NCBI GenBank assembly: GCA_000091205.1
Contig: AP006495.2
Length of the DNA: 64,000 nt
Source: Cyanidioschyzon merolae
Lineage: Eukaryota
Reading direction: 5' to 3' (one strand)
Positions 7,354 to 30,232 of this stretch are shown one piece after another (position 1 is the stretch's first letter; every line of letters begins with the position of its first letter). The notes below the pieces were generated by a model that saw only the letters and a program-made list of their open reading frames with translations, was not told where the DNA came from and searched no databases. The position numbers and the translations under genes are program-made.

Positions 7354-8125
7354 GGAGCGGTTTCGTTTCGGGGAACTTTCGCGTGCGCTATGTGAGTTCT
7401 AGGGCTCCTATGCTCGACTGAGGGTACGCTGACGGTATTTCGAGACGTCATGTATGCGAGTGCTCCTCAGGCGCAGCCGCGGTGGTATATATGCTGCAGC
7501 TTGGGTTGGCGCCGGCGCCCAGCTCAGCTAGGACGCCATGTTGGGAGAGATGCTGCGCCGAAGCGACACAGGATATGCTTTGTACAGTTTTGAGCAGAGG
7601 CAGAATGCCGTGTTGCAACAGACGCTTTACAGCAGCGAGGCGCAGTAGTCACCAGAAAACTGCGGCGCGCCCGCTGTTGTCTCTGGGCTGTGTTACCGGC
7701 CTGTGCGTTATCGCACCCGTGTGGTAACTGGCCCTTCCAAAGGGCACCTCGCGCTGGCCCTACTGAATCCAGACGTCCACGAGTGACTACGTATGCTCCA
7801 GAGAGACCAAGCTGTCCCGAAGAGATGGGATGGCGACGCTCGCTCACCGCGAACCTATCATCATATCACTCTGGTGCATGGAAGGCCTGCTGTCTCAGTG
7901 GCGTACTCCTTGACTGCGCACTTGGCCTGCTCAAGCCGTCGGATGCCTGTAAAACCTAATGGAATATTCGACGCTGTGCTTCGGAAAGGCAGCGCTGGCG
8001 TCCAATAGACCTCCGGCAGGGAGCTGGCGGTGCTGCTGATATTGATGCTGGTGTCGTTGTCTCGTGCAATAAACGCAGGCCGGGTAATGCTCTTTTTCTT
8101 GAACGAGCCATTTTCCGAGATACTT
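7354..8125. repeat. 772-bp dispersed direct repeat, copy 1 (99% identical to 27903..28674)
   Basis: Base-by-base comparison with copy 2 shows only about 8 substitutions over 772 bp and sharp boundaries (starts GGAGCGGTTTCGTTTCGG, ends CCGAGATACTT). It contains a TATA-like GGTGGTATATATGCTGCAGC. The ORFs inside it (e.g. 7482..7727) are composition artefacts repeated identically in copy 2. Confidence 0.9.
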
Positions 8126-8480
8126 ACCAGCAGTTTGAAATCCAGTTGCTCTCAAAATAGGTACAAGTGTCGAAACAGGTATCCGAGCAAGAGATGTTTT
8201 GTACGTGTTGAAGCTCATGCGGGAGATACTGATCATGACAATGTAAACGGCGTGTCTCACGAATAATCTGACAGTTTCCTTGCTGCTGTCAATTGATGTT
8301 CAAAAGAGCTTCGTTCTTCCTCAGCAAAAAAGTGTAGCCCTCAGGAAGCTCCTTCCAGACGTAACCACATAATAGCACTTCCCACAGCAGGACGATAAGT
8401 CCCCAGGGAAGAGAGTTGCAGAACGGTGCCTTTTTGGCGTACGCTCCGGGACGCCTGCAGCGTACGAAACGAGGCGCGAA

Positions 8481-9473
8481 ATGGCAGGGAAACAGACACG
8501 GGTCCCGAGAAAAGAGTTTTTTAGGAGAGCAGACCTGCTTCTTCATAGGCTGCGTTACGATCGAGTGAAGCTTCTGAATGAAATACCCTGGCAGCCCTAC
8601 AATCCGGACTACCAGCCGCGGAGGGATTGGCTCACCGTTGCTGCTCTGCTCCCATGTGCGCTCCTGGGCCGCTACGTTCTCGAGAGGCTAATTCTGAAAC
8701 CTTTTTTTGCAAAGTTCAGTGAAAGGGGTCGCAAATCTCCTCGTTTAGCGTCAAAGATGGCCGAGAACTGCTTTTACGCTCTTTTCTATATCTGCAGCCT
8801 GTGCGCGGGGTTGTATGTATATCGCTCGGAAAACTGGAGAGTATCCTTCTTTGATGGAGCCTGCATAAGCGCATTCTGGGAGCTGTATCCACCAATATCA
8901 ACAGTTTTTCGACTCTACTACCTTTCAGAGCTCTGCTACTACATCTCCAGTGTCATTTTTCTTCTGACGCACGATACGAAGAGGAAAGATTTTACTGAAA
9001 TGGTTGTACACCACTTGGCAACAATATCGCTTATCACATTGTCCTATATGTGGGGCTGGATGCGTCTAGGTTTGGTCATTCTCATGCTGCATGATGCGGG
9101 CGATATTCTACTGTACACTGCGAAAGTAGTGCATTATCTTGGCTTGTGGCCCTCGAATATAGTGCTTTTCGTGTGCTTTGCCATTGTATTCTATATTACA
9201 AGGCTATTCCTCTTCCCGCGAATCATTCTGTCGGTATCTACGGAGCCGTGGATTGAGGTTACCAGAGAGCCGCTCGCCAACAGAATTTGGGTTGCCTACT
9301 GGGGGTTCTATATCGTGCAATTGATTGGTTTCGCCCTTTTCCTGAATATACTTTTGTATCTTCACTGTTTTTGGTTCACACTCATTCTGAAGATGATGTA
9401 CCGTGAAGTACTGCACCCCGGAAACGCCAAGTACTCGAAAGGCGATATTCGCTCCGATGATGAAGCCGAGTAG
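8481..9473 (+). CDS. ceramide synthase, TLC/LAG1 family
   Basis: 330-aa multi-pass membrane protein starting at ATG. It carries the canonical Lag1p motif RKDFTEMVVHHLATISLITLSYMWGWMRLGLVILMLHDAGDILLYTAKVVHYLG (HH...HDxxD). Confidence 0.9.
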   Translation: MAGKQTRVPRKEFFRRADLLLHRLRYDRVKLLNEIPWQPYNPDYQPRRDWLTVAALLPCALLGRYVLERLILKPFFAKFSERGRKSPRLASKMAENCFYALFYICSLCAGLYVYRSENWRVSFFDGACISAFWELYPPISTVFRLYYLSELCYYISSVIFLLTHDTKRKDFTEMVVHHLATISLITLSYMWGWMRLGLVILMLHDAGDILLYTAKVVHYLGLWPSNIVLFVCFAIVFYITRLFLFPRIILSVSTEPWIEVTREPLANRIWVAYWGFYIVQLIGFALFLNILLYLHCFWFTLILKMMYREVLHPGNAKYSKGDIRSDDEAE

Positions 9474-10180
9474 TCGAGTTTCACCGGGCAGACCTTGTTC
9501 TCACCCGAAGAGTATCAGTTTTTGCATCTCGCAAAGAACATGCGGGGGACAGAACGATTGCTTCTCTTCGTCAGTATCAAGAATTTGCGATTTCTACGTG
9601 TCGTCGACATGCCAATCGTCTGCTGTTTCCTTAAAAAACAAAGCATTCTGCGCGTTAAAAATTGTGCGCATACGCTGGGGAAATATCTTAGCATCACAAT
9701 ACGATTCATGCTTGCACCGATGCAAGATCTTTTTTCATCTTGAAAGCTGTTCTGAGATGAAAAGGTTATTCAACGAGGACCGAGCGATCCCATGTAGTAA
9801 CGCCACCCGTGCGCTTCGCTTGCTCTTCTCCACAAGATGACCGCATACTGTGTAATCGGAAAGATGCCTGCAGTATGTGCAAGGCCAATCTAATCATTGC
9901 ATTATGAACCATGAGCGCTGTCGAGCCGCATGCATATCAACACCCTGTACGTCTGGAAGGCCAATCTGATCACAATGCAAAATCATCCAAATGCGCTTTT
10001 GGGCCGTATGCACATCAACAGGCACCCAGAGAATGCAGCAACAGATTGGTTCCATTAGCTGGGAACGTTTCGAGTCTAGCTGGAGAAGGTGCGCATGTAG
10101 AAATTAAATGACTGCAGAGCAACGACGCTCATGATTATTGATCCAGTTCAGACGTTGTTAGGCCTGATTTGGGTCTCCTC

Positions 10181-11332
10181 TCAGGTTGGAACCCACCCTA
10201 CCATGTAGACGACCTGGAAAGTTGCCCCGATCCAGTCATTGTAGTGATCTGAAACGGAAACCTGTCCGTCACCGCGAGCGTTTTCTATTTGCATGTTCGG
10301 GAGAGAGAATCGTTCGCGATATATTTTTGATGCCTGTTGTAAGACTTTGCGACTGAGCCATGATTGCCGCCCCGCTAGTGCATTGCTCTCAGCCATTTTT
10401 TGCAAATGTTTTATCAATGTCATCATATCTGGGTACGGTACAATCATCGTGTCGACGTCAATCGTGATCATTTCGAAACCAACCCGCGTGAGAAGTCGGG
10501 CTGTATCCTGGAATTCTACCATGGGGCTGGTATGGATCCCGACGCCGCCGAGGAGTGAGTCCTCAGCAAGTTGCAAGGAGACTCGGAGTTCGTGTAGAGT
10601 TTCACCACCGAGCATCGCGCCCAGAAAGACCCCTCCTGGTAGCAGTGCTGCACGAACCTGAGCGAGCATACCTGGCAAATCATTGATCCAATGCATTGCC
10701 ATGCATGAGATAGCAAGATCAAACGGCGCTTTCTCGAGATAACCTCCCTGCCATAGCGCCGGCAAGAATAATTCTTCATCCGCAGTTAGCTGTGTAGTGC
10801 GAAACGGTGTTTCTGACAGCGGAAGACGCTCTAGACCATGCTCCAACATAGCTGATGACAGCTCTACCTCTACGAGCAGCTCGAGACCAGAAACGATCTT
10901 GTTTCCAACCAAGGAACGCCGAACATATGACGCTCCAGCTCCCACGTCCAATACTCGCCGAAACGAGCAGCGAAAGTCTAGCAGTCTTTCACACAGACGT
11001 TTCGCTACTTCACTGCGTAGGTATTCATATTCTGAAAAGTCTGCCTCTTTAGCCGCCCACTGGCGCTGAAGGTATTTAACCTGACGATCGAAAACGCACG
11101 TCCCGGTGCTCGCACAACGAAGAGTGCCCCAGCGGTGCAATAACGACTTGGCCCGACTTGCCAAGCCCAGCGCTAATAGACCGCGTTGAAGGCGCGCCCC
11201 AAGCGACTTGTTCACCAACCTCGCACTCGCGCTGAGGCAAAACAGCATTCCTAAACGTGAGTGGCATATTCCTTGCGCACTCAACAACAACAAAAAATTC
11301 ACGTTCCATGCGTCGTTCCGAGAACCAAGCAT
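10181..11332 (-). CDS. class I SAM-dependent methyltransferase (NDUFAF5/BioC-like, Methyltransf_11 type), probable mitochondrial presequence
   Basis: 383 aa starting at ATG. SAM motif I is RVLDVGAGASYVRRSL, acidic motif II is LVEVELSSAM, motif III region is LAISCMAMHWINDLPG. The N-terminus is R/L/S-rich. Confidence 0.7.
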   Translation of the reverse strand: MLGSRNDAWNVNFLLLLSAQGICHSRLGMLFCLSASARLVNKSLGARLQRGLLALGLASRAKSLLHRWGTLRCASTGTCVFDRQVKYLQRQWAAKEADFSEYEYLRSEVAKRLCERLLDFRCSFRRVLDVGAGASYVRRSLVGNKIVSGLELLVEVELSSAMLEHGLERLPLSETPFRTTQLTADEELFLPALWQGGYLEKAPFDLAISCMAMHWINDLPGMLAQVRAALLPGGVFLGAMLGGETLHELRVSLQLAEDSLLGGVGIHTSPMVEFQDTARLLTRVGFEMITIDVDTMIVPYPDMMTLIKHLQKMAESNALAGRQSWLSRKVLQQASKIYRERFSLPNMQIENARGDGQVSVSDHYNDWIGATFQVVYMVGWVPT

Positions 11333-11787
11333 GCTGTGGCCAACTGCGATTCAGTGCATTCGGTTCTGGAGATGGTTGCCTTCGTGCGTTAGTTCGGCAA
11401 ATTCTGTTCCCTGAATATCGAAGCGACTCTTTCTAGATGCCTCTAGAGCAATAATCCACAATGTCCGTCTTTGCCGCCGACTTTATTCATGAGGATTCCC
11501 CAGGTGTCTGACACTGAGCACCGTTCCAGAGACGCAAAGTGGCACCTCGGCTAGCGCGTCTCTCATGGATCCGCGAAGGCGCTGCCCTGCTGTTCGTCCA
11601 CATGATTTTTAGTATTAGATACGAACGAATTGGATGGTGCTTGCGCTTGAAGTCACTGTGCTGGTAGACGTTGCGCTGAAACCCGTGTGGTCCTAAAACG
11701 GAACGTGTTTACCAAGGTAACGCTGGCATGCGTCCAAACATTCGGGTCTAGAGCCATTTGCACCAACACCAGCATTTGCGACCTTTT

Positions 11788-13093
11788 TCACTGACTGCTT
11801 CTTCCTCCACTCTCTATAGCTCGCACCTCCGGTTTTGAACGCGCGAGTCTCCCTTGTTCCTCTACCTCTGTTGTAAGCAGTCGAAGGACGTTGATGGCAG
11901 CGTTCAAGTCTCGATTTGGCTGCACCCGGCTTCTGTCAGAGCATTTCATGCACAGACGGAAGTAGCGATCTAAGTTTCGGTTGCTATGTTCATCTCCTGT
12001 ATTTTCAGCCTCGATGTGCGATTCGCAGCAGTAACATTTGGCTATTGTTAGGTGTTCCCATATGTCCAACAAAACTCCTTTTCCGGGTGCAGCCCTGTCG
12101 GACGTGACGGTCCGCTTCATCGCTCGATATAATCTCATGACTGGTACAGAATGATCCCCCGGATGCCCTCCTTTGTTTCCACGCGGGTTGCTGTGCACGA
12201 GGATCGCGGATTTGTTCTGGGCAAAATTCTCAGTGAGTAGCCCTTCCTTTCTACGCAAACGGGCAAGCGGATCCATTCGAGAGAGGACTTTTTGGAATGA
12301 TATGTTGTCCGTGATGAATCGGGTATCGAAAGGAAAACCAATGCCGAAGTACAAGCTCAGAAATTTCGGTCCTTCTGTACACAGGTCATGTCAAATGGTC
12401 ACGTATTCTTGAAGTGAAGCGAAAGCTCCAATGACCGAAGTCCGCTTCCATGATTCTTTACCCTAAAAACAAAAAATACTCTAGCGCCGTGGACCAAATC
12501 ACATGAGTGGAACCATGCTATTGTGAAATGCCTTTTCTTTTTCGTCAAAGAGAATGGAAGATCTGTTCTTCGCATGGAATCGATAAATCTTACAGCTGAA
12601 TTCCAGGGATCTTCCGGCATCAGCAGCTGAACAGGTCCTCAGGGAACGACGTTCAGTTTTCCCTTCCTACTATTCAGGGGGCGCGTTTCAGTGTCCACGA
12701 TTTGCCTTGAAACGGAAAGAGCCATGCTTGAACAATTTGCGATTTGAGCATACCACGCGTGAGGAGAAGAAAAGATTGAAGGTTTTTACATATGCGTTGG
12801 AGGATGCTATCGCTTCTTTTACGAATTCTTGCCCGAGCGCTTCGCAACTCACATTGATAAAGGTGAGGTGACGAACTCGAGAGAGGAAGCGTCGAAGGAG
12901 CCACTTCGAAAAGATGACCTGGAATCCTCAGAGTACTTGTGAACCCGTGAGTCCTTAGTGCTGCACATCCAATGTCGAGGATGCACATCGAAAAAGTGCG
13001 GAAAAAATAAGATGGCATAAACAAAGCGAGCGATCTAATGTTCGATTTACCTCTGACACGGACATCGCCATGTGCTCGCTGCGCGAATCTCAA
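11788..13093 (-). pseudogene. frameshifted TnpB/Fanzor-like RuvC nuclease relic (about 400 codons across three frames)
   Basis: C-terminal piece: GVLLDIWEH (RuvC-II Glu region), TIAKCYCCESH...LCMKCSDRS (CxxC...CxxC zinc finger), NRDLNAAINVLRL (RuvC-III). Upstream, in another frame, CILDIGCAALRTHG resembles RuvC-I GIDxG. The three ORFs 11788..12354, 12399..12620 and 12674..13093 are in three different frames. Confidence 0.65.
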
Positions 13094-13324
13094 GCGACGT
13101 CTTACAAAGCTCGGAAGCTCTTATCTGTCCAGAACATTGCACTCACAGCGCTTCCTCACTATAGTCGACAGTGCCGCTGCTCGTTTAGCGAGAGAGCGAG
13201 AGGAAAATCCTCCCGAAAACATATCACTTCCTAATTTCGGTCTGAAGCAACCGTTTTCGGACTGGTCTGGCAGTTTTTCAAAGAACACGCCATACTTGTC
13301 CCCGGAAATAGTCCGTTGGCTGCC

Positions 13325-14350
13325 ATGTTTACGCTCCAGTACTTGAACCCAGTGCGCGTCAAAGCATCTGTGCGGCAGGGGGGTGTAGCGGTTTGCCGCA
13401 GGGACCAGAGACGCGTGCGGCTTGTGCCTGCGATACATGCGCAACTCTTGCGGAACTTGAAGTATGCGATTCCTGACGAGAAATTCAAACAGTTTGCTAC
13501 CCGCTCCGGCGGGGAGTTTATCGGCTTTGAGGCGTATTTCGATGCGACGACTGGAGAACCGCTCGAAGTACCAGAGCGTTTTGTTCCTCAGGAGTACCGC
13601 GACTGGCACGTTCGTGTGTTCGGTCTCGATGAAAACTACTCAGAGGCTATTGATGGGGCCACGCTTTTTGGCAAAAGGCAGCTTATAGACGTGAAGGTTG
13701 GTTGCCAAGAAGATGCTGTGAGTGCAGAGGCAAAGCATATCACTATAGATCTCAGCAGAACGGATATGCATGCAGTATTCCCATGTGGATGCTTCTCAGC
13801 ACGTCTATCAGCGACCTCAGCACACGATGAGAAAGTTTTGTTCTCTTTAATATTTCGCGATTTGAAAGAGCTGCGTCGCATCCAAATCGAATTCACCGCG
13901 TTTCCGCTGGAGTCGAAGCACCCGTTTGGTCGGGAGATTGTCGTTCGGCGCGAAATGTATGATCAGCCGTTTAACGGGGGGGTTCAGCTCATCGGTTGCG
14001 GCGGCAAAGTTGAGAGCTTCGTTACATTTGAACGCCGGCTAGGTTCACCCCGCGGCCTGCGTCGTCGCATTTGCTCGCTAGACGATCACGTGTCTATGGA
14101 AACGATTCGGGATCTTGCAGGAGATACTCGACAAGAATTTAGAGAGGTACACTTTCTGAGCTTGCCGGCAAACATCAGCGTGCGTCGTTATGCGACGCGC
14201 GATGCAAGTACACTCGTCTATGAGGCTGCTGCTATGATCAGTGATCTCTCGACTGGGCCTGGTCCAGCGCTAGCGCTGGCAAGGAACTACGATGCAAGCA
14301 CTGGCCAATACAAGGGCTCAGAGCTTTTCATCGAATTCTTTGAGAACTAA
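13325..14350 (+). CDS. hypothetical protein (341 aa), no family recognised
   Basis: Long clean ORF (first ATG at 13325; the track ORF starts TTG at 13316) with normal amino-acid composition. Its last 23 bp overlap the 3' end of the convergent P5A-ATPase gene. Confidence 0.55.
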   Translation: MFTLQYLNPVRVKASVRQGGVAVCRRDQRRVRLVPAIHAQLLRNLKYAIPDEKFKQFATRSGGEFIGFEAYFDATTGEPLEVPERFVPQEYRDWHVRVFGLDENYSEAIDGATLFGKRQLIDVKVGCQEDAVSAEAKHITIDLSRTDMHAVFPCGCFSARLSATSAHDEKVLFSLIFRDLKELRRIQIEFTAFPLESKHPFGREIVVRREMYDQPFNGGVQLIGCGGKVESFVTFERRLGSPRGLRRRICSLDDHVSMETIRDLAGDTRQEFREVHFLSLPANISVRRYATRDASTLVYEAAAMISDLSTGPGPALALARNYDASTGQYKGSELFIEFFEN

Positions 14351-17300
14351 GCGTTGCGAGGTAATGCACAAGAATGTTCCAGATCCAAGCTGCGATAAAG
14401 TCGCCGCTCAGGAGAGCGAAAACAAGCCAACGAGCTTGCCAACTAGGCAACGCTGCGAGCTCCATGTACTGATTCAGTTCGGGCGACACTTCCAGACATG
14501 CAGCAAGCATTAGAAAAGCGCAAGCTAGAAGCGAATATAGCAGGGCCTTGTTCTTCGTTATGCTCTGCATGAATGGTTCGCCCTTGTAATTGACCAGAAA
14601 GACCGAGACCTGCTGCATCGTTGACAGAAGAAAAACGATCGTATTGAGGATATTTGGCGCAAATTCCCCCTTGAGATCCACTTCAAAGTCTGGAGGAAGG
14701 TATGCCTGCGACAGCGCTGTGCAGCATGCAAGCGCGAAGAGGTGAATCGCGAACTGACCCACAAGCGATATGAACAGACTTGGTGTAAACATGGAGCGAG
14801 GGGGACGCTGTGGCGCCAGCCGAGCAAGCGGTTTGCCGCGCGATACAAAATAAAATGCAATTGCGATCAGAATACCGGTAACCGTCATCTGCCGATCACC
14901 AAATTTGACTCCCTCCAAATAAAGCACACTGAGGCTGTACGCAGATATCAGGCAATTCAGAGCAAGAATTTGATACATTTGCAACGTTGTCACCAGCGTG
15001 CAGCGACCTTGTCGGATTATGTCCACACAACTAGCAATGCTCGCTCGCTTAGACGTAAAGGGCGAGGCGATTGATGCATCTCCCAACCGCACAATTGGCA
15101 TCTCGTTATCCAGTTCCAACAGAGAGCCCGACCTAGGTCCATGCGAGGATTCAGAACGTCTGTGGTCCCCATTGTGAGATCTTGTCGAAGTGCTTGCATG
15201 CGCTCGCAAACTGGCATTTGCGGCAGTGGACCCGAGCTGCGGATCCAATGACGGGCGACTCTGTGCAGAGGGCGATCCTAGAGTATCCTGCTTGGCGACG
15301 GATTGTAGCAGCGCCACGCCGACGTGCGCCTGCTTGAGGGCGCCCACGTCATTGGTCCCATCACCACACATTAGGCAGTACATTCCGGCATCCTTCAAGC
15401 TAGTGATAACGAGTTCTTTTTGCGAAGGGGTCATTCGGGCGAAAACTTGGACATATTGAAGCAGCTCCTTCAAGCTCGCGCCACGCATCCGATACTCGTT
15501 CAGCACGTCACCAGTCATCGCCAAATTGTATTCAGAGCCAAGCTTGGGCAACTCAGCAGCCTCAAATTTCCGACTATTTTCGATTTTCCCATGCATGGCG
15601 CGTGACGGCTTCACCCACACAAAATCGCTCGTTGCTGCTTCTCCCGGCCTCGTGCAGAGAATAAGATTCTTCTTCCTACGAGAGCAAATTCCAGTTTCAA
15701 GCGCGACATACAACGCGGTCATGAGCGAGTCACCTGTAATCATCGCCACTAGATGATTTGACTTGCGAAGGGCCTTAATTGCGCCACGGGAATCTGGTCT
15801 CGCAGGACACCGAAAGGCAGCAAAACCTGCAAATTGAAGCTCGCACTCGATCGCACCCCTGCTGAGCCGCCGTATCTCCGCATGGGTCATTTCGGCCGAC
15901 AACTCTTTCGTTGCGAGTGCAATCACGCGCATACCGTCCATCGCGAGTTGGCGATACTGCGCATCATAATCAGGGGGAACCTCCCTCAGGCAACCACGAA
16001 CTGACTCGGGAGATCCCTTGACGAGACTGAGAAGGTACGGTGTCCTGGTAGATTCTCCATCTGATACGGATACGGCTACACTCATCCGCTGAATGGTAGC
16101 ATCGAAACCGTGCCGCTGCAGTATCTGTATACGTGTTCCCCGACATGATCCCTCCCGCGCGTAGACTGTATTGTTGGCACCGAGGGTCCAACCGATTGCC
16201 CTGAAGGCAGCTGACTCGATGGGGTCACCGGAAACCTCTCCGCTCAGGGAAACCAGCGAGTTACAAGCAGCCAAAACCAGTATCGCATGTTTCGGCATGT
16301 TTTCCGCTGGGGTCAGCGAGTCCTGGCCAGTACACAAAAGTCCAGCAAAGTCAAGTCTGTCGACGGTTAGGGTTCCCGTCTTATCAAAAAGGCACACGTC
16401 GAGCATACCGGCGTACGGGATCCGGAACGGTTCTGTGCAGAAAATCCCCATCTTTGCGAGATCCGCAAGCGAGCCCTGAACTGCGAGAGAAAGCTGCATT
16501 GGGAGCTCAGGCGGGATCACCGACGTGATAATCAGCACGCAGTGCAACAACAGTTCATACCGAGATCTTGAAGGATCGCGCAGACCGTGGTGAAGCACGT
16601 ACGCCGAGGCTACTACCGCGAATACCAAAAGAAAAAGAATACAGAGAAAGCTCTCTCGGTTGTTCGCCGAAGCTGTCTGGCTGGAATACATAATCGTGCG
16701 CAACAGTTTTCCCTGTGCAGATCCGAACCCCGTGCGGAGAACGCAACCAACACAGTAATTGCCCGGTGGTGGAGGAATCGAGCCCCAGTCATTTCCTGGG
16801 GTTTCAGTTTGCAAGAGCATTGTCCCGCCGAAAAGGACATGCATCTTGTCCTTGGTTCGCGGTTGAAGTTCCGATCCATTGCTTCCAGCACTTCTGGCCG
16901 CTTCTGATTCCTCTATTCTAAGGGCTTCTTTCATCAGAGGAACAGATTCTCCAGTTAGCAGCGATTCGTTCACAACAACCTTTCCTGCCAGCAAAAGAAT
17001 ATCGCAAGGCACTGCTAAACCCTGGGGACTTGTGCCTAGGGCCACAAGGTCGAGCGGTACTAGCTTATCGGAGAGCACCCGCTTCCATTTGGCGTCCCTG
17101 TATGCGAGCAACGGGTACGGCTGGATGCGCATGTCGCGCAACTCTCGGAGGCTGCGCTGTCGTGATCGGACGACTGTTGCCTCGAAACTAAGCATCATAC
17201 CGAGCGTCATGAGAGAGTACTTCCACATTTCATCGAGACACCACAGAATGACACAGAAAACTTGGAAAGCGAAAAGCGGTGCTGTAAGCTGCTCCTTATA

Positions 17301-17843
17301 GAGCTCCCAGAAACTGGGCATAGGAATTTGCAACCTATTCTGGCCGTACTGTTCGAGCTTTGTAGAGACCTCCGCTGTGCTCAAGCCTTTCACACCCTCA
17401 TGGAGATAGAAGCTCAAGGGAAACTCATCCGGGTACCGCAGCTTGCAGAACCTATGCTCACCATCATCAAAGTAATAACGACGACACTGAAACTCGAAAA
17501 AAAACTTGTCATGCTCTTTTCGAAGTGCTACAATTTCTGGACGGCCACGATGAACCCGCGGCTCGACTAAGAGATGCGTACTTTGAACTAGGTCGCTCGT
17601 GACAAAATAGCCTATTCGACGATCAAAGTGCGCTGACCAAAAGCGGGCCAACCAGCACAAGATCTGTAGGATCACCGCCGCTCCCAGGCACAGAAGCGTG
17701 CTGAACGCACTCCATTGTTTTACCGCGAACAAAACTCCGAGTGTTACGTAGGCGACAAGAAAAGGTTGCACATCAAGACGTTGCCAAAAGCCGCGTTTTT
17801 TTAGCAGGGTAACGCGTGTGATCACTTTTCCGTCCGTTCTCAT
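14328..17843 (-). CDS. P5A-type cation-transporting ATPase (Spf1/ATP13A1 family)
   Basis: DKTGTLT phosphorylation motif (CLFDKTGTLTVDRL), GDGTNDVGALKQAHVGVAL hinge, P5 signature PPELPMQ. About 1170 aa from the ATG at 17843 (the track ORF extends to a TTG at 17960). Uninterrupted. Confidence 0.9.
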   Translation of the reverse strand: MRTDGKVITRVTLLKKRGFWQRLDVQPFLVAYVTLGVLFAVKQWSAFSTLLCLGAAVILQILCWLARFWSAHFDRRIGYFVTSDLVQSTHLLVEPRVHRGRPEIVALRKEHDKFFFEFQCRRYYFDDGEHRFCKLRYPDEFPLSFYLHEGVKGLSTAEVSTKLEQYGQNRLQIPMPSFWELYKEQLTAPLFAFQVFCVILWCLDEMWKYSLMTLGMMLSFEATVVRSRQRSLRELRDMRIQPYPLLAYRDAKWKRVLSDKLVPLDLVALGTSPQGLAVPCDILLLAGKVVVNESLLTGESVPLMKEALRIEESEAARSAGSNGSELQPRTKDKMHVLFGGTMLLQTETPGNDWGSIPPPPGNYCVGCVLRTGFGSAQGKLLRTIMYSSQTASANNRESFLCILFLLVFAVVASAYVLHHGLRDPSRSRYELLLHCVLIITSVIPPELPMQLSLAVQGSLADLAKMGIFCTEPFRIPYAGMLDVCLFDKTGTLTVDRLDFAGLLCTGQDSLTPAENMPKHAILVLAACNSLVSLSGEVSGDPIESAAFRAIGWTLGANNTVYAREGSCRGTRIQILQRHGFDATIQRMSVAVSVSDGESTRTPYLLSLVKGSPESVRGCLREVPPDYDAQYRQLAMDGMRVIALATKELSAEMTHAEIRRLSRGAIECELQFAGFAAFRCPARPDSRGAIKALRKSNHLVAMITGDSLMTALYVALETGICSRRKKNLILCTRPGEAATSDFVWVKPSRAMHGKIENSRKFEAAELPKLGSEYNLAMTGDVLNEYRMRGASLKELLQYVQVFARMTPSQKELVITSLKDAGMYCLMCGDGTNDVGALKQAHVGVALLQSVAKQDTLGSPSAQSRPSLDPQLGSTAANASLRAHASTSTRSHNGDHRRSESSHGPRSGSLLELDNEMPIVRLGDASIASPFTSKRASIASCVDIIRQGRCTLVTTLQMYQILALNCLISAYSLSVLYLEGVKFGDRQMTVTGILIAIAFYFVSRGKPLARLAPQRPPRSMFTPSLFISLVGQFAIHLFALACCTALSQAYLPPDFEVDLKGEFAPNILNTIVFLLSTMQQVSVFLVNYKGEPFMQSITKNKALLYSLLACAFLMLAACLEVSPELNQYMELAALPSWQARWLVFALLSGDFIAAWIWNILVHYLATLSSQRIR

Positions 17844-18379
17844 CGGGTGCAGTACAAGTACCGGGTCACGTTCTGCGAGGGATATACGCCGAGCGCCGTG
17901 TTTGTTGTTTACGAACTGTATTGCGCTTTGAGGGACGCGCCTGCAGCTGTTCCCGAACAACTCGGTATATCTGACAGTGTGCGCTTCTCATGGGAAACTG
18001 GTCAGTTTTGCTTGGAAAAGCAGCTCGTTTGGGTGAGTTTGTTCTTGTGCCCTCTGCTTTTCTTGCAGGCAGCCTGCTTTTATGGTCAAGAAGGAGCCCT
18101 AGTGAACGTACGGAAAAAACTGCAAATACGACGAGGACCTGAATGCGAGACAGCCGAGTTGCCAACACGCGACGCTGTGCAATCTTTTTGACGTTGATCA
18201 CGTGATAGAAACCTCATGTCTGGAGCTGACGGCTGCTCTGAGGGCTGAGCAGCGGCTACGGGGTCGCTCGGCAACCTAACGTAGAAAACACGCCGTGCGG
18301 AGCCGTTCTGAGAACTCTTGGCGTCCTACTGAAGGCTCACAGCTTGTAAAGCATTAGAATGATTAGATGAAAATAGTTT

Positions 18380-20500: not shown

Positions 20501-20650
20501 AAACAGAGCACTCACTGCCAGCAACGAACACTTTAAAAGACAAACGCTGCAGTCTGCAGTGTACACTAGTGACGAGAAACCCGCCCCAGACAAGAACTCT
20601 ACACCTGATGTGCAGACGCCTCCCAGTCTTTTCGGACCGGCCACCCATTG

Positions 20651-21910
20651 CTACTTCAAATTTTTCTCAGATAGTTCCACTTTGAGGAATTCTCTTACAA
20701 AATTCTTTCGTGTCCACTTTGGATGTCTTCTTTCCATCACCGCACAACTGATGTTAATCGGGGCGTTCAAGTCTGGGTTCACAAACTTCACACGATTCCT
20801 CCCGTTGGTTCTACTCACTAATGCGAGTAGCCCTCGAACTTTCGCCATCCTTTCCATTCGCTCTTCTATAAGCTCTCCGTACTTTTTTATATCCTCAGGG
20901 CTCCGCTGGCACTTTTCCATCTCGACTTTCTGAAGTGTAGACCCCTGCTCATGGTGCGTATAGGACGTTCGGAACTCATCTATCGGTATCGTAACGAAAC
21001 GCCTTGTGCACTCCTTGTACGTTGTTGTTGACGGAGCTGGCGAAGTCCCTTTTTTCGACACCCAGCGCCCTGCTCCGTATGCTACTACGAGCCTCTGACT
21101 TTCATCCTCCTTCAGGGCGCTTAACTAATTGAAAAAGTTCGCGAACACATGCTGCTTCCCGCAGTATAGATTCATTCGCAGACAGGCCCATCGAAACTTT
21201 GTATACTCTTTCCACAGCGCCTCGCAACGGGCAACGAGAACCCCCATGAACTCCCGAAAAGCTTTCAAGTCCGCTCCGCGGCTGGTCACCTCGCTCAAAA
21301 CTTCCAGGTGATACTTCATTCCTGCATTCCAAGTCTCGAATTTCTTACTTGTATTCATGATTCCCGATTCTCGATAGTATCTTGCTCTCGAGATTCTCAA
21401 AAGACGCATATCTTTCTGATGCAAGTTACCGTGAATGCCATCTTCCGCACGCTTGGATACAGCGATGGTTATGATATTCGTGTTCCCTGGGTCTGCGCCA
21501 ACGATAAAGACGTCATCCTGCACTTTCCGCGTTCCAAGATCCTCCCCCTTCTTTTCTACATCCTTCATCATGGGCGATTCCGAACGCATGATAGGACGAT
21601 ACGCCCTCAAGCGCTTGTAGTGTACACACATGGATATTCCATCGGTTTCGATCATCCCCGTGAATATTTTTTGCTCGCTCGTTTTGAGACGTTTCAAACC
21701 GAAGATATTCTTTCAATGAAATATCCGGTTTTCGCCCGTAAACTCGTTCTTGCTGTCATCGAACTCCCGACTGATCATTTCATGATGCTGTAAAGGACTC
21801 TGGAGTCGATTGTTACAAAATGCCACTTGATGTTGCACACCGGAACGACGTTGAAACAGTTCCCTTGAAGCGCAGCCTCCCATTCTACGACACTGCATTT
21901 GCTTCCACAC
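20651..21910 (-). pseudogene. TnpB/Fanzor-like RuvC nuclease relic, one reading frame with two in-frame stops and a degraded zinc finger
   Basis: ORFs 21713..21910, 21125..21697 and 20651..21061 are all in the same frame, separated by single stops (TAG at 21125-21127). RuvC-I is [18 protein letters not shown]. RuvC-II/TSK is IPIDEFRTSYTHH. Degenerate RuvC-III is NPDLNAPINI. The Zn-finger cysteines are lost. Confidence 0.65.
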
Positions 21911-24072
21911 CCTGCTCCATATCGGACTTGCGTTCCATTTCTCGATGCAGGAACACGAAATAGCGCATGAAGGGGGAAAAATATCTTCCTCTCATCTTTT
22001 TTCATGTCTGATACTTTTTTGCTGGATTGACAAGTCCCCAAATGGCATGGTGCTCTTGAATATCCTCACGGATTACAGAACCTCCATTCCTGCTCCTTCA
22101 GAAATCGTTCGAAGTCCATGATCATGTGGTTCTTCGGGTCCGTGAGGTTCTTGGTCGCCCCGTAGAAGCAAATGCGCGAGTCACCCTATGTTGAACGCCA
22201 TTCAAGCATTCAAAAGGGGCGATTTTCATGCAGGACGAGCACTCGAGAGTTTTCCTCGGCATTTCCCTGTACCAAGCATCAGGTGGCGAATGAAGCTCAC
22301 CCTGTAAAATCCTCCGAAGTCTCGCTGTGTTGATGTCCTTGACTTAGTGGTATGTCTCTCTCACAATATGCATCAGTTTTAAAGAAGCGTAAGGAACACT
22401 ACTGGAGCACGACTCGACACGGTTTCTGATGAACACTTGCATCTGTAGCTTCTGCGGACCCTTTTTATGTCCAAGAAGACTGGCTTTCGCAACGATCTCA
22501 TCCTTGCGTCGCCTTTCGTGTAGCTTTTGGCGTCCGGCCTCCAGTTTCTGCTTCTTACTCTTCACTTGCTGCTCTGGTCTCGGCACTGTTTTCCGTTTCT
22601 TGTCGAACTCGGCGGCTCCAGGTCCCCGGGATCCGCGACTTGCATCTCCATATCATTTCTTAGATTATTTATTTCTTCAAATGAACATATTTCGAACATA
22701 TCTGCGATAAACCGTGAAAAAGCATTTGATTACATTTACCTAGGGGTAGAACAGAATTGAGTCGATAGCGATGAATGCGTTCCAGGCACGTCAATGAAGC
22801 ACACCGTATCAAACTTATTTACTCTGCACAAGGCGCATGAATATCGTTCGCTTCTCACTCACTAACTCAAAGTTCGTTTGGACCCCGTATGCGATCCAAT
22901 CGTTTCCGCGTCTCCTCAGACTACGCAAGAAAAGGCGACAGCGTCCTGTCGTGGAGGTTCTTGGCACTCCGCCAGACTTCCGATGGAAGCCGGATATCTA
23001 CCAGCAGCGTATCGGAGTGGGATTTAGAAAGGTTTCCCACTCGAATACAACACTTAACGAACTGCATTTTATTTCAGAGACGCTCTGATGAAGCATGCCG
23101 TTATCCAAAATTGTCGGAGCGCTCCCACAAACGTCGGTGTGCAGATCGCGGAAACGTGACATACATCCAGTCGCTTTGCAGTGAAAGAAAACGGAGCTTG
23201 CTAGAGGTGCACATGGTAAGCCACGCTCGAGAGAGCATAGCAACGCACCGTCATGCCTCAATATACAAACCATGCTTTTATTGCTATATGCAACTCTGGC
23301 ACTCGCTGCTGTCTCGCCCGAGCCGCAGCAACTGCTGGCTGGCACCAATCTTGAGCGTGAATCTCCTGGTGGAACGTCATGCGGACTGGACGCAGCCGTC
23401 CAGCCAGTGTCCTTTTTACCGAAGCAATATCGGGTTTTGGCTGCGAAGTCTCCGCAGATCGACTGTCATATGCTCCTCATACAAAGACGAGGGAGCCTGC
23501 CTTTGGGCTTTCGCGATCGTCGCCCCGCTCCTCCAGAATGTACTTTGGAGCAGCTTTCGCCAGCTTGCACGGCCTGCTAGACCAAGACGGACGAAGAGTT
23601 CTACGTCCGTAGTTCGGGCCCGTACCATATGAACTGTGGCCTCGAACAGACGCCATTAAAAGAAGAAAAAGACCATTCGGGTCTCCATGCGATATCACAT
23701 ACGTCGCTGGGTCGGTGCAGTCTCTTTTTCAGAAGGGAATGCTGGTTTGCGGTTGACGATAAACCATAGCGTCTTTTCGAGAACCGAGGTTTCTCTCATT
23801 GATACAGGCTTCGTTGCTGCGTTCGAGAGCAGCTCATAGGTAAATTGATCCTCGCTTGGAGAAAATTTTCCAAACGAAATCCGTCCGCGAACAGCTTGCG
23901 AGCGATCTGTGATGTACTTTGCTATTCACTCCCCAAAATCTGCAATTCAGAAAAGAGATACAAGCTTGGCTTACATACGACTCAATGCCAACCATCTCCG
24001 CAATCAATCAGCTATCGCGATATCCGCGAAACAAACCAATAGACGCTACCGCCATTCAACTTGCATGCAGTC

Positions 24073-25758
24073 TCAAACTTGAGCTATAGCACAGCCATCT
24101 GCGCGGGGATCGCTGCCTCCCCAAAAGACGCCTGCATCTGCATCCCGCATTATGACCTGGCCGCGGCCAAAAGCCATCCGAGCAGGTCCTCGAACATCAC
24201 TCATTTTGATAGGATGCCCCAAATGCTGCAATTCAGAAGCCACATGCGGCAATATGCCCTGCTCCAGCAGAAGGGGAGCGTGCGCAATGTTCTCCGGCCG
24301 GAAGTTTCGGGACTCGATGAAAAAACGAGGCGCATCGAGGGCAGCTTGCGCATCCATTTTGCGATCCATCATATTCACGATGACCTGAAGATGACCTTGC
24401 GGTTGCATCATACCCCCCATGACCCCGAAAGCTGAGAACAGGCATCCAGACGAGGCATGCACTGCCATTCCTGGCATGAGCGTGTGATATGGACGACGGC
24501 ATGGCCCCAGAACGTTCGGGCTCCGTGAATCAAGACTGAAACCGAGACCGCGATTTTGGAGCGAGAAACCAAAACCTTCCGGAACAATGCCGGTACCGAA
24601 TCCCTTGCAAGTTGAGTTAACGAAGGAACATGCGTTTCCTTGTTCATCCACAACACAGAATTGGACAGTATCGGATCCAGCGAATCCGGCAGCGGATGAC
24701 GATTGTTGGCTGAGTTGGGCACGACCTTCGCGGAATATACGTCGCCAGGTTCTCATGGAATCGTCGGTAAAAAGTCTGCACACTGCTCCACAGTCTACTT
24801 GACCGCAACAACGACACGAGTCCGGTGCGTGTGATCGATCCGCTATGTAGGTGTCGGCCACTAGGAACCCGACGCGCATCGCCCGTATCAGCGCATCCAA
24901 CAAGGCAGCGTCTTGCCCGGCCGTGTGAAGGCTCTCGAGATCAATGCCATCCAAAATCTTAAGTGCTATCAATGTTGCGAGGCCTTGCGTTGGTGGCGGC
25001 ATCTCGTAGATCCGAACACCCCGGTATTCCGCCTGAAGCGGCTCTGCCTCTTCCGTGCGATGCGAACGCAAATCCTCATGGAGCATGGGCACCGAAGCTA
25101 AACTCGAAACGATCGCATCTGCTACTGGACCTTCGTAAAAGCCCGCTTTACCACGTTCCGCGATAAGTCGCAACGCTCGGCCTAAACCGGGGTTTCGGAA
25201 AACTTCACCGGCTCGCGGTGCTCTGCAGCGTTCCACGAGCAGCGCAGACCCGCCCGGGGACCTTTTCAGCAAGTCCACGCTGCTCCGCCACTGCAGCGCT
25301 GTCAGCGGGGACACTGGGAAACCGAACTCTGCAAGCTGTATAGCCGGGTCAAGAACTGACCTTATCGGAACAGATCCGCTACTGAAGCGATCAATCGCGT
25401 CACACCATAAAGCCGGTGCACCGGGTACGGTGACAGTTAGTGGTGACGCTGGGGCAAGCTCCTTCAGACCTGCTCTCTGCACGGCTTCCAGTGTTAAGGC
25501 TGCTGGCGAGCGTCCACAACCTAACAGTGCGGACACTTTCTTCTCTTTAGCGTCAAAATACAAAAGCAGGGCATCGCCGCCTATGCCTGTGGAGCACGGC
25601 TCCGTCACGGCGAGCGTCGCCGCAACGGCCACAGCCGCGTCTACCGCGGTCCCGCCTGCTGTGAGCACCTGAATCCCAGCCTGTGAGGCCAGCGGTTGAG
25701 AAGCGGCACACAAACCTCTCAAACTCAAGACGGGAGAACGCCGAGAGTGGAACTCCAT
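24073..25758 (-). CDS. GGT: gamma-glutamyltranspeptidase (Ntn-hydrolase)
   Basis: 561 aa starting at ATG. N-terminal GIGGDALLLYFD, autoprocessing/catalytic Thr region AGSDTVQFCVVDEQGNACSFVNS, C-terminal MGGMMQPQGH...GGSDPRADG. Typical GGT architecture. Its start sits only 21 bp downstream of the NDUFA9 stop. Confidence 0.85.
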   Translation of the reverse strand: MEFHSRRSPVLSLRGLCAASQPLASQAGIQVLTAGGTAVDAAVAVAATLAVTEPCSTGIGGDALLLYFDAKEKKVSALLGCGRSPAALTLEAVQRAGLKELAPASPLTVTVPGAPALWCDAIDRFSSGSVPIRSVLDPAIQLAEFGFPVSPLTALQWRSSVDLLKRSPGGSALLVERCRAPRAGEVFRNPGLGRALRLIAERGKAGFYEGPVADAIVSSLASVPMLHEDLRSHRTEEAEPLQAEYRGVRIYEMPPPTQGLATLIALKILDGIDLESLHTAGQDAALLDALIRAMRVGFLVADTYIADRSHAPDSCRCCGQVDCGAVCRLFTDDSMRTWRRIFREGRAQLSQQSSSAAGFAGSDTVQFCVVDEQGNACSFVNSTCKGFGTGIVPEGFGFSLQNRGLGFSLDSRSPNVLGPCRRPYHTLMPGMAVHASSGCLFSAFGVMGGMMQPQGHLQVIVNMMDRKMDAQAALDAPRFFIESRNFRPENIAHAPLLLEQGILPHVASELQHLGHPIKMSDVRGPARMAFGRGQVIMRDADAGVFWGGSDPRADGCAIAQV

Positions 25759-25779
25759 GCAGAGGCCCGCCAGTCTCGT

Positions 25780-26958
25780 CTAATCAACGTAAAAAAGCGA
25801 ACTCCGATCTCCACCCTTGCGATATTGGCGCAGCGTGTTACGACCGAGGTCGCTCAAAAGATCGTGCGGTATGATGTCCAGGTCATCAAATGTGCCCAGT
25901 GCTTCACGCTCCTCCCCTGATGATAATATGGAGCTGGCTATCACATCAGACGCCTCTCTGACGGCATCGCTCTCCGTAAAAAGCGGTGAAGGGTTCACCA
26001 AAGGTAGCCGCATTCCCGTGAGGCGCATGACGACTTTGGCAATAGGGAGGGGTAAGTTCAAAAGATTAAGCTCCCTTTTCGTAGAGTCTGCGACAAATTC
26101 TACTACTTCACGGCGGGTAAGCACCCGGGGACCGAATAGTTCGTACGTCTTCCCCGCAGTGGACTCGGGATTGCGCACACTCGATACAATTGCTCGGGCG
26201 ACATCGTCTACCCAAACTGGTTGAGTCCGGCTTTTTCCGCCTTGGACGACGGGAACAAACCCTAGCCTACTGAGCGAAGTAGCTATCCTCGCAAGAAAGC
26301 GATCTTCCATGCCCCAAATATCTGCTGGGCGGAAAATCGTCGCTCGCGGGAAAGCTTGTCGAACAAGCCGTTCGCCCTCGATCTTAGAGCGAGACCAGCG
26401 ATCTTCTGGATACTCCGAGTTCGCCTTACTGTAAGCAGGTAGAGCGGACACATGGATAAAGTGCTCTACCTGTTCGAGGCTTGCAAGACGCGCGATAGTC
26501 TCCGCAACACCAATATTCACGTCCTCGAGGGAGTAGTACCTCGTATCGTACCATTTTCCGATAAGGTTGATTACGACGTTCGAGCCCGCAATTGATCGAC
26601 GCAGGGAATTGATGTCCCGAGCTTCAATCTGAATAGGATTGATCTGACCTAGATCGCCCATAACCTTCAGATGTCGATTGTCCAGTTCGTCACCTCTCCA
26701 GGCAACAAAAACTGTGCTCCCAATGCGCCCCAACTGACTAACAACGTACCGTCCCAGAAAGCCCGTTGAACCAAAAACAGTAGCAATAATCCCGGAGACC
26801 GAGGAGCGTCCTCCAGTGCCCTCGGCTCGCAACACAGGCGAAACAAGTCGAGCTTTCTCGCTTAAGTTCGTTGGAGAGCTCATGTACCGCACTGCGCTAC
26901 CATTACGCTGCAGGCTGAGCCGCAGCAGCCGGACGGACGCAGCCCCACAGCTGTCCAT
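25780..26958 (-). CDS. NDUFA9: NADH dehydrogenase (ubiquinone) 1 alpha subcomplex subunit 9 (complex I 39-kDa, NAD-dependent epimerase fold), mitochondrial
   Basis: [33 protein letters not shown] and [35 protein letters not shown] align closely with human NDUFA9 ([30 protein letters not shown]..., [35 protein letters not shown]). N-terminal mitochondrial-type presequence. ATG start. Confidence 0.9.
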   Translation of the reverse strand: [392 protein letters not shown]

Positions 26959-27902
26959 GAGGCTTGAAACGCAGCAAACGAAGGTGTTTTCAGTATGGAC
27001 CGCCGCAACGACTGTAAAGTTTAGTCAGTTGGCACGTTGGTACGCTCTCTGCCAATGGCATACGGCGCCGCGGCTGGGATCACAGCTGCTCCTCGAGCAT
27101 CTGGGCGGCATTGTTTCCGGCCCGAACACCCATGAGCCAGCAATGCTGGTTGCGACAATAACCTCTGGAGATATATATAACAGAACTGCTCTAATGTGAG
27201 GCAGACAGTAAGATCTGGACCAACTATTGAAATAATCCTGCAGTGCCCAATTCGTTCGCCGGTAAGCTCTTCGGATGAGAACTATGAGTTGAAGCAGCTC
27301 TCCGAAACTTTCGGTAACATGTAGAACGGCTGGATGGAGAGGATGGATCACAGTCGTTGTACAGACTGTTATCGAATGGGTCCGAGAAATCCCAATCACA
27401 CAAATTCGCACCAAGGCTGTTAGAGAACAAGAGAACAGCAGCTCGCTTCCACAGTGATGCACAGCAAAAATTCAAGATCGATTAGCGTACGGAAAGCGAA
27501 CAGAACTTGTACACTCTAAAAGGAAGCTATCGATCAGGTTGCATCCTCTACTAAGTGAATTCACGCTTCACTTAAATGATTTCGCTATATACTGCTCAGC
27601 TGTTGGCATCATCCAGACAAGTTCTTTCAATTCGAAGTGAGCTCAAGCGCCTCTTCATTTGATGCTACAAGACGAGTTTGTGGTTCAAAGTTGGATTGTG
27701 AGACCTGTCGCCGTCGGGCTCCCCAACTACTTTGCAGCATTGAGTTGAGATTCTGTGATGAACCGTGGGCACAGATAAAATAACGGGCTTTTCATACGAG
27801 AGTCTTCAGCCGAGAACGGTCAGCACGACGAAGACTGTGCGAACGTTTACCAGGTACATCGATTCCCGCCGCATACATGGTCTGTCTCTATAAATCGGAG
27901 TT

Positions 27903-28674
27903 GGAGCGGTTTCGTTTCGGGGAACTTTCGCGTGCGCTATGTGAGTTCTAGGGCTCCTATGCTCGACTGAGGGTGCGCTGACGGTATTTCGAGACGTCAT
28001 GTATGCGAGTGCTCCTCAGGCGCAGCCGCGGTGGTATATATGCTGCAGCTTGGGTTGGCGCCGGCGCCCAGCTCAGCTAGGACGCCATGTTGGGAGAGAT
28101 GCTGCGCCGAAGCGACACAGGATATGCTTTGTACAGTTTTGAGCAGAGGCAGAATGCCGTGTTGCAACAGACGCTTTACAGCAGCGAGGCGCAGTAGTCA
28201 CCAGAAAACTGCGGCGCGCCCGCTGTTGTCTCTGGGCTGTGTTACCGGCCTGTGCGTTATCGCACCCGTGTGGTAACTGGCCCTTCCAAAGGGCACCTCG
28301 CGCTGGCCCTAATGAATCCAGACGTCCACGAGCGACTACGTATGCTTCAGAGAGACCAAGCTGTCCCGAAGAGATGGGATGGCGACGCTCGCTCCCCGCG
28401 AACCTATCATCATATCACTCTGGTGCATGGAAGGCCTGCTGTCTCAGTGGCGTACTCCTTGACTGCGCACTTGGCCTGCTCAAGCCGTCGGATGCCTGTA
28501 AAACCTAATGGAATATTCGACGCTGTGCTTTGGAAAGGCAGCGCTGGCGTCCAATAGACCTCCGGCAGGGAGCTGGCGGTGCTGCTGATATTGATGCTGG
28601 TGTCGTTGTCTCGTGCAATAAACGCAGGTCAGGTAATGCTCTTTTTCTTGAACGAGCCATTTTCCGAGATACTT
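27903..28674. repeat. 772-bp dispersed direct repeat, copy 2 (99% identical to 7354..8125)
   Basis: See copy 1. Constant offset of 20549 bp with no indels; substitutions only (e.g. CTTCGG vs CTTTGG, GGCCGGG vs GGTCAGG). Confidence 0.9.
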
Positions 28675-30180: not shown

Positions 30181-30232
30181 CCGCCGCACACGCTTCCGAA
30201 CAACGGTTGAACTTCCGAGGCTCCACACCGAA

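Follow-up and report, generated by a model that had tools for sequence, protein, structure and literature searches.

Shared variants indicate gene conversion between two near-identical intergenic repeats of Cyanidioschyzon merolae, which may be an old duplicate

Two direct, collinear copies of a 772-bp non-coding sequence lie in the stretch of Cyanidioschyzon merolae DNA analysed here (the window: 64,000 nucleotides of contig AP006495.2, assembly GCA_000091205.1, which from its CMM gene prefix we take to be chromosome 13 of strain 10D), one upstream of the ceramide synthase gene LAG1 (copy A) and the other between an NDUFA9-like gene and the farnesyl-diphosphate synthase gene FPPS (copy B). 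Variants shared between the copies across strains indicate that the two exchange sequence by ectopic gene conversion, and a second pair, matching in placement and orientation, is found in the sister genus Cyanidiococcus. We lean towards reading the two copies as an old intrachromosomal intergenic duplicate kept near-identical by interlocus gene conversion, and the duplication, judged by gene positions, would most likely be older than the split between Cyanidioschyzon and Cyanidiococcus. C. merolae serves as the simplest photosynthetic eukaryote model, its genome having almost no redundancy and very few repeats, and a non-coding pair of 99% identity is unusual in it; the literature searched contained no description of the repeat.

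Results

The repeat pair and its boundaries

Alignment with MAFFT and base-by-base comparison place the copies at 7354-8125 and 27903-28674, at an A-to-B spacing of 20,549 bp. Both are 772 bp long and differ by exactly eight substitutions (repeat positions 73, 410, 431, 445, 493, 629, 727 and 729) and by no insertion or deletion, which amounts to 98.96% identity and agrees with an earlier note on this DNA that had counted about eight. Homology between the copies ends abruptly on either side and the flanks are unrelated; as that note had also stated, neither target-site duplications (TSDs), terminal inverted repeats (TIRs) nor TG..CA ends emerge when both copies are compared base by base. The pair is the sole one of high identity within the window, where other repeats measure only 65-75% identity, and the remark that its near-identity stands out is thereby borne out. 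Sensitive blastn and six-frame tblastn searches of the window with the repeat returned nothing else resembling it. Pfam and contig gene calls confirm the genes that had been listed between the copies, namely ceramide synthase, a methyltransferase, P5A-ATPase, TOP1, GGT and the NDUFA9-like protein.

Copy A is set between a 3' gene end on its left and the 5' end of LAG1 on its right, and copy B is separated by 944 bp from the NDUFA9-like ATG and by 405 bp from the stop codon of FPPS. Pseudogene remnants of LAG1, NDUFA9, FPPS and ORF134 were looked for beside the opposite copy and none was found. The GC content of the repeat is 57%, compared with 43-53% in its C. merolae flanks, an island character that would fit GC-biased conversion. 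The repeat has the following features.

7354..8125 (+): repeat copy A, 772 bp, between a small conserved open reading frame (ORF) and LAG1, its right end 355 bp short of the LAG1 start codon
27903..28674 (+): repeat copy B, 772 bp, flanked by the NDUFA9-like gene (5' end) and by FPPS (3' end)
7486..7492 (+): TATATAT, the only TATA-like box of the repeat (copy B equivalent 28035-28041), putative
7498-7529: GC-rich palindrome directly after the TATA-like box
7538..7648 (+): 36-codon ORF (copy B 28087-28197), the same in both copies and unlikely to be a true gene
7731-7745 and 7970-8002: hairpin-like sequences
8068-8073 (+): the only AATAAA of the repeat, followed by a T5 run at 8093-8097, 28 bp before the right boundary, putative
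8080..8082 (+): repeat positions 727/729, with a CG or TA haplotype that, depending on the strain, adjoins right flanks of either type, A or B

The TATA-like box and the two hairpin-like sequences are those that had been pointed out earlier. The 36-codon ORF uses the ATG nearest downstream of the TATA-like box (context GCCATG) and, alone among the ORFs of the repeat, is called as a gene by metagenome gene callers; its only two polymorphisms (repeat positions 208 and 229) are both synonymous third-position changes, and it has no counterpart in the Cyanidiococcus repeat.

Variants are shared between the copies

Every repeat copy was taken from public contigs and labelled A or B by its flanks. 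Fifteen sites vary across strains, and not one of them separates A from B. The most reliable sign of conversion is the 727/729 haplotype. Strain 10D has CG in copy A and TA in copy B; TA stands beside the A right flank in contigs L020-L022, and CG beside the B right flank in L012, L025, L027 and L031. Since these two sites lie only 44-46 bp from unique sequence, their linkage to the flank should be reliable even in short-read assemblies, phasing in metagenome assemblies being secure only at sites close to the flanks. Both copies are also polymorphic at position 229, and the number of differences between A and B within a single assembly ranges from none (Ga0504778_000162) through one (Ga0078972_1001120) to the eight of 10D. 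Copy B carries 6.5 segregating sites per kb against 2.1-2.5 in its own flanks, an excess that is expected if variants come in from the other copy; the corresponding figures for copy A are 18.1 and, in flanking intergenic DNA, 17.5. Within the repeat the variable sites are unevenly spread, two falling in positions 74-409 and 11 in positions 410-755.

Shared polymorphisms, the absence of fixed paralogue-specific sites and GC enrichment are what is looked for in concerted evolution, and all three are observed here. The phenomenon is known, and the pair adds a further example of it. Direct repeats have been shown, by marker pop-out, to recombine intrachromosomally in C. merolae 10D (PMC13353863). 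Among the explanations that the earlier note had offered, a gene-converted duplicate is the one that gains support, from the variants shared across flank types, from the GC island and from the positionally orthologous pair in the sister genus.

Two contexts in independent assemblies

Both copies, at the same 20,549-bp spacing, are present in three assemblies: 10D, Ga0078972_1001120 (104 kb) and Ga0504778_000162 (42.5 kb). A scan of JGI metagenome contigs with a 24-mer from the middle of the repeat matched four stretches, all of them in context A or B, and the 36-codon ORF is called in 21 public contigs, the contexts among the matches listed being A, B or one A/B chimera. This count covers the JGI metagenome contigs, the 21 ORF-bearing contigs and the 64-kb window. 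The many genomic copies with a divergence spectrum like that of a short interspersed nuclear element (SINE) or miniature inverted-repeat transposable element (MITE), which the earlier note had considered, are not seen, A and B being the only contexts in metagenome contigs.

The repeat boundaries also leave their mark on short-read assemblies. Contigs encoding an identical LAG1 often start at 8096, 30 nt inside the right boundary, as is expected of a k=31 de Bruijn graph at a repeat with two exits; others start at 8003. One contig (L031) begins exactly at 27903 and another (L034) ends exactly at 8125. In a further contig (L030; JGI 3300057138, Ga0506606_000614) the left flank of A is joined to the right flank of B via a single repeat. 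This is most likely an assembly chimera, though the same junction would be expected from a 20.5-kb pop-out.

A pair at the orthologous positions in Cyanidiococcus

Related lineages were reached through homologues of LAG1 and FPPS. Amino acid identities to the C. merolae proteins are 80% (LAG1) and 75% (FPPS) in Cyanidiococcus yangmingshanensis (GCA_013995675.1), 79% and 74% in a second Cyanidiococcus-like lineage (Lin2; GCA_041825655.1 and JGI contigs), and 54% and 59% in a more distant species (Sp3; ERZ1300892 NODE_14). Lin2 and C. yangmingshanensis, at 84% identity in both proteins, are sister lineages. Intergenic DNA is unalignable between C. merolae and any of the three, and likewise between C. 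yangmingshanensis and Lin2.

C. yangmingshanensis (VWRR01000008.1) has a repeat pair of its own, with copies of about 1.06-1.2 kb. One lies between ORF121 and LAG1 (L035 8744-9940) and ends 60 bp before the LAG1 ATG; the other lies between FPPS and NDUFA9 (L039 11456-12512) and starts 397 bp after the FPPS stop, the distance in C. merolae being 405 bp. The two are direct in record coordinates, 13.9 kb apart, and identical to 99% over 711 bp and 94% over 497 bp. In both genera the LAG1-proximal end of one copy is the FPPS-stop-facing end of the other, which makes the relative orientation the same. The pair is the only dispersed repeat in the roughly 35 kb examined, and its GC content is 57-58% against 45-50% in the flanks. 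Its copies differ by four 35-bp tandem units, of which there are 8.3 in the first (L035 9304-9594) and 4.3 in the second (L039 11802-11952). The 35-bp unit holds GGTTCGATGCC, which agrees in full with the Pol III B-box consensus GGTTCGANNCC; with no tRNA-like structure around it, the match is probably due to chance.

Comparison of the C. merolae repeat with that of Cyanidiococcus by nhmmer, blastn at word sizes 7-9, six-frame tblastn, k-mers and Smith-Waterman alignment against shuffles gave background only, and no peptide similarity was found between the two. Copies are thus 94-99% identical within a genome and unalignable between genera, and the orthology of the pairs is one of position and orientation only. 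With about 12 intergenic regions in 35 kb, we put the likelihood that both the pair of sites and the orientation would match by chance below about 1%, an estimate of our own.

The genes between the copies differ between the genera, and the immediate neighbours of each copy are kept. When window positions 1636-38328 are compared with the corresponding loci of Cyanidiococcus (L035/L039), Lin2 (L036/L041) and Sp3 (L038/L042), the adjacent blocks RRN3-ORF121-LAG1-MT-P5A/TOP1 and GGT-NDUFA9-FPPS-ChlD-HECT appear swapped, uninverted, in Cyanidiococcus and Lin2 relative to C. merolae. Sp3 has a block order like that of C. merolae, and the repeats are not at the breakpoints.

Searches for a known RNA, gene or transposon

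Rfam at its gathering threshold gave no match in the window or in the Cyanidiococcus loci, and permissive searches (E<=10) with both repeats returned, at best, sub-threshold hits of E = 3.4 and 9.6 to irrelevant families; the covariance-model scan that had been proposed as a check has thus been run and has found no family. ARAGORN found no tRNA or tmRNA in the window and no tRNA in six related loci. The folding energy of the repeat shows no excess over dinucleotide shuffles (z = -0.18 on the + strand and +0.94 on the - strand). The C. merolae repeat contains no match to the Pol III B box, and across the whole window such matches are as frequent as chance would give. A scan for bacterial-type promoters and terminators came out empty, which is irrelevant for a eukaryote.

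The repeat had been described as without coding potential, and this description holds. Neither its ORFs (up to 107 aa) nor the neighbouring small ORFs have a Pfam match above threshold, an exact look-up of eight repeat ORFs in a protein collection found none of them, and in an 89-aa ORF all four of the differences between A and B change the amino acid. With no Pfam family, no conservation and no synonymous bias, a protein-coding gene was rejected.

Telomerase RNA was considered as well. Candidates for it have been proposed on chromosomes 13 (CMM123T) and 16 (CMP131T) from a CCCCCCAUU template (Nozaki et al. 2007, PMC1955436). They share with the repeat that they are hypothetical non-coding transcripts of a fast-evolving RNA class, one of them on chromosome 13, and differ in being template-based, whereas the repeat and the rest of the window lack CCCCCCATT; as the repeat contains no circular permutation either of this template, which would be complementary to the telomere repeat AATGGGGGG, telomerase RNA was rejected. 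A connection with the mating-type region was dismissed too, this region of C. merolae being on chromosome 11.

Mobile elements were examined class by class. The ends of the repeat, GGAGCGGTTTCG... and ...CCGAGATACTT, are not complementary, and an inverted-repeat search gave only the internal palindrome, which rejects a MITE on its TIR. The flanks read AACA|..|ACCA at copy A and AGTT|..|TCGA at copy B and show no TSD; with this and its GG...TT termini, a solo long terminal repeat (LTR) was rejected. A SINE was rejected for want of a tRNA, 7SL or 5S head (ARAGORN; Rfam, E<=10) and of a B box, and the repeat ends in ...GAGATACTT, with no A-rich or simple-repeat tail. Two 24-mers from the repeat had no match in IMG/VR.

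Gene order and other features of the window

Gene order was taken from Pfam and from gene calls on public contigs. The features around the repeats are, in order:

1636-3564 (-): RRN3
4325-5615 (approximate): diverged dispersed repeat, between RRN3 and the small conserved ORF
5809..6213 (+): small conserved ORF, 121-134 aa, left neighbour of copy A
8481..9473 (+): ceramide synthase LAG1, 330 aa, right neighbour of copy A in both genera
after LAG1: methyltransferase (-), then an ORF without assigned function at 13316-14350 (+)
14328-17960 (-): P5A-ATPase
after P5A-ATPase, in order: TOP1 (-), two small ORFs, GGT (-)
25780..26958 (-): NDUFA9-like NAD(P)-binding protein, left neighbour of copy B, 5' end toward the repeat
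29080..30180 (-): FPPS, right neighbour of copy B in both genera, 3' end toward the repeat
past FPPS: Mg-chelatase ChlD (+), then HECT ligase at 35671-38328 (-)

The small conserved ORF is the left-hand neighbour in C. merolae, Cyanidiococcus and Lin2 alike. The LAG1 ORF is identical to BAM81092.1/XP_005537128.1, annotated as "similar to longevity assurance protein LAG1" of C. merolae strain 10D; for the NDUFA9-like protein an exact sequence look-up gave no identical record.

Three gene junctions are tight. The stop of the NDUFA9-like gene and the ATG of the gamma-glutamyltranspeptidase gene (GGT), in tandem at 25758-25780 (-), are 21 bp apart (22 bp in Lin2, L040; 30 bp in Sp3, L042), a gap that looks too tight for a separate promoter or terminator and suggests either a dicistronic transcript or a promoter within the upstream coding region. 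At 30180-30234 the starts of FPPS (-) and ChlD (+) diverge at a distance of about 53 bp (97 bp in Cyanidiococcus), which on its layout is an extremely short putative bidirectional promoter region. The ORF without assigned function (341-344 aa, +) overlaps the 3' end of P5A-ATPase (-) by 23 bp at 14328-14350, and the overlap is also called in environmental contigs and in Lin2.

The window further contains diverged dispersed-repeat copies, 65-73% identical (4325-5615, 43365-43490, 48407-49008, 34088-34590 versus 49233-49761, and 958-1169 versus 11820-12031). Many public contigs, some of 42-104 kb, end at window positions 5486-5608, immediately to the right of one of these copies. An interspersed element of about 3.2 kb with 253 copies and a truncated WSV486-like ORF, reported to be transcribed, has been described from C. 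merolae (Nozaki et al. 2007, PMC1955436), and the diverged dispersed copies in the window probably belong to it. Like the 772-bp repeat, this element is non-coding or degenerate and resides in the C. merolae genome; it differs in having hundreds of copies, 65-75% identical in the window, as against two copies of 99% identity. The repeat shows no blastn or tblastn similarity to the dispersed copies, the comparison being to those in the window and not to the reference element.

Discussion

A probable old duplicate under gene conversion

The explanation that we favour, if by no wide measure of confidence, is that of an old intergenic duplicate in concerted evolution. Non-crossover ectopic recombination would homogenise copies A and B. 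A crossover between them would pop out about 20.5 kb with LAG1, P5A-ATPase, TOP1, GGT and the NDUFA9-like gene; such a loss is presumably lethal in a haploid, and only conversion events would survive. With crossovers lost in this way, both copies would therefore persist and drift together. The duplication would predate the split of Cyanidioschyzon and Cyanidiococcus, with conversion acting ever since, such that sequence could turn over fully between the genera while 94-99% identity was kept within each genome; in Lin2 the pair would have been lost, or freed from conversion. Under this account we infer that the C. merolae and Cyanidiococcus pairs have a common ancestry.

Several observations weigh against such an origin. 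The repeats of the two genera have no sequence, motif or peptide in common, and their homology would have to be read from position and orientation only. Lin2 and Sp3 lack a pair in the ORF121-LAG1 and NDUFA9-FPPS spacers, and in neither is there residual similarity between these two spacers; with Lin2 lacking it, one gain and one loss are, in number of steps, no more parsimonious than two gains. The Cyanidiococcus pair is known from a single assembly. Most variants come from short-read metagenome contigs, which are able to mix the copies within the repeat, as in L030. Lastly, the diversity of copy A equals that of flanking intergenic DNA, and purifying selection is not evident from it.

Possible independent duplications

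A possible though clearly less probable explanation is that functionless duplications arose recently and independently in the two genera, the repair of a double-strand break in one intergenic region having copied some 0.8-1.2 kb from a nearby one by template switch or synthesis-dependent repair, with the coincidence of sites due to chance or to fragile or physically paired sites. The divergence of A from B, only 1% and about the level seen between strains, would agree with this, as would a population diversity equal to that of neutral flanks, the lack of any structure, coding or family signal, and the absence of the pair from Lin2 and the outgroup. The region that holds copy A measures 2267 bp in C. 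merolae, whereas Cyanidiococcus has 1515 bp there and Lin2 some 1400 bp, lengths compatible with an insertion in C. merolae. What speaks against recent, separate events is that the pairs of both genera occupy the same two orthologous spacers, in the same orientation and almost equally far from the FPPS stop, even though the gene order between the copies differs, a match for which our estimate above leaves chance little room. There are, moreover, no fixed A/B differences though the duplication predates the split of 10D from environmental strains, and both pairs are GC islands. An ancient duplicate and independent duplications take the same number of steps on the tree, and the latter add an unexplained coincidence of site and orientation; we grant the former slightly better than even standing and the latter a minor share.

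A possible functional module

The pair may also have some local function. Most plausibly the repeat would be regulatory or promoter DNA upstream of LAG1, with a twin firing toward the 3' end of FPPS, or a fast-evolving non-coding transcription unit. As the Cyanidiococcus repeat stops only 60 bp short of the LAG1 start codon, it must include the LAG1 core promoter or 5' UTR, and its twin would carry the same promoter or 5' UTR sequence pointing into the 3' end of FPPS. Taken further, the pair may be a functional two-copy non-coding module, promoter-bearing or a long non-coding RNA (lncRNA), kept throughout the Cyanidioschyzon/Cyanidiococcus clade; we regard this as rather unlikely. In such a module copy A would serve the 5' side of LAG1, and the twin would point into the 3' end of FPPS, upstream of the NDUFA9-like/GGT tandem. 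The two loci might in this way be linked, with regulation of the LAG1 type producing, say, a transcript antisense to FPPS or interfering with it, and selection would act on identity between the copies, kept by conversion, rather than on primary sequence. The diversity of copy A, equal to that of neighbouring intergenic DNA, argues against strong constraint, although positions 74-409 vary less than positions 410-755. Several public contigs that resemble transcript assemblies, and that may stem from either RNA or DNA, enter or cross copy A; they are not used here as evidence of expression.

A possible duplicated RNA gene

More doubtful still is a duplicated gene for a fast-evolving Pol II non-coding RNA of about 0.58 kb, running from the TATA-like box (7486) to the AATAAA (8068), conserved in position only and homogenised as RNA gene families often are. 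A Pol II unit would be consistent with the lone TATA box and the lone AATAAA, both on the + strand. That the repeat holds exactly one TATA[AT]A and one AATAAA with T5, correctly ordered on one strand and with most of the repeat between them, has a probability of about 1% by chance, on a rough estimate of ours; the 5' part of the repeat is also the less variable one, and the sister genus has a pair at the orthologous positions. On the other side, neither genus yields an Rfam match, folding is no better than that of shuffles on either strand, and a telomerase template, a Pol III B box and any tRNA-like part are missing. The Cyanidiococcus repeat does not show the TATA/AATAAA layout, no sequence is conserved between the genera, and the population diversity matches that of flanking intergenic DNA.

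Evidence against a mobile element and an assembly artefact

That the copies are two remaining insertions of a non-autonomous mobile element (MITE, SINE or solo LTR), the first possibility that the earlier note had named, is close to refuted. A discrete 772-bp unit with sharp boundaries and unrelated flanks is what such an element would leave. All data searched hold only two contexts, with no TSD, TIR, TG..CA ends or A-rich tail, no tRNA- or 7SL-like head, no match to viral contigs and no likeness to the dispersed repeats of the window, and mobility would not account for the pair that another genus has at these two sites. The genome of C. merolae, moreover, is reported to contain no LTR elements, 26 non-LTR and eight class II elements and very few transposons altogether (PMC1955436). 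An assembly duplication or a collapsed-repeat artefact in the reference, for which the near-identity of the copies and nothing further speaks, has practically no standing: two copies at equal spacing and with the same boundaries in independent assemblies from other samples rule out the former, several short-read assemblies break exactly at the repeat boundaries, and the eight A/B differences are present in a finished reference.

Significance and comparison with known systems

If the pair is indeed old and kept by conversion, it would offer a clean natural read-out of ectopic recombination and of GC-biased conversion in a haploid, genetically tractable alga, and it might prove to be a regulatory or non-coding element whose position is conserved. 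It would also call for caution in gene targeting and marker recycling near LAG1, FPPS and NDUFA9, where the wrong copy could recombine. A neutral duplicate, by comparison, would be an ordinary by-product of break repair.

Low-copy duplicates in concerted evolution by interlocus gene conversion are known from yeast, Drosophila and human paralogous segments. The pair resembles these paralogues in having two copies on one chromosome, sharp boundaries, shared variants and GC enrichment, and it differs from them in that the C. merolae unit lies wholly in intergenic DNA and contains neither a gene nor an RNA that can be recognised; a counterpart in another genus, at the same orthologous positions but unrelated in sequence, is rarely documented for non-coding duplicates. 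Conservation of position and not of sequence is familiar from the inverted repeats that flank centromeres in Schizosaccharomyces pombe (imr) and in Candida species, and from the IR-L/IR-R boundary repeats of the S. pombe mating-type region. Those pairs likewise combine near-identity within the pair with rapid turnover between species and a retained position, whereas their copies are in inverted orientation on either side of a functional domain that is itself conserved; the C. merolae pair is direct, and its copies enclose other genes than those of Cyanidiococcus. Syntenic lncRNA and promoter-associated loci, finally, keep location and orientation across genera while their sequence becomes unalignable, as is the case here. 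They differ from the pair in that two-copy concerted evolution is unusual among them and in that transcription of the C. merolae repeat is only putative.

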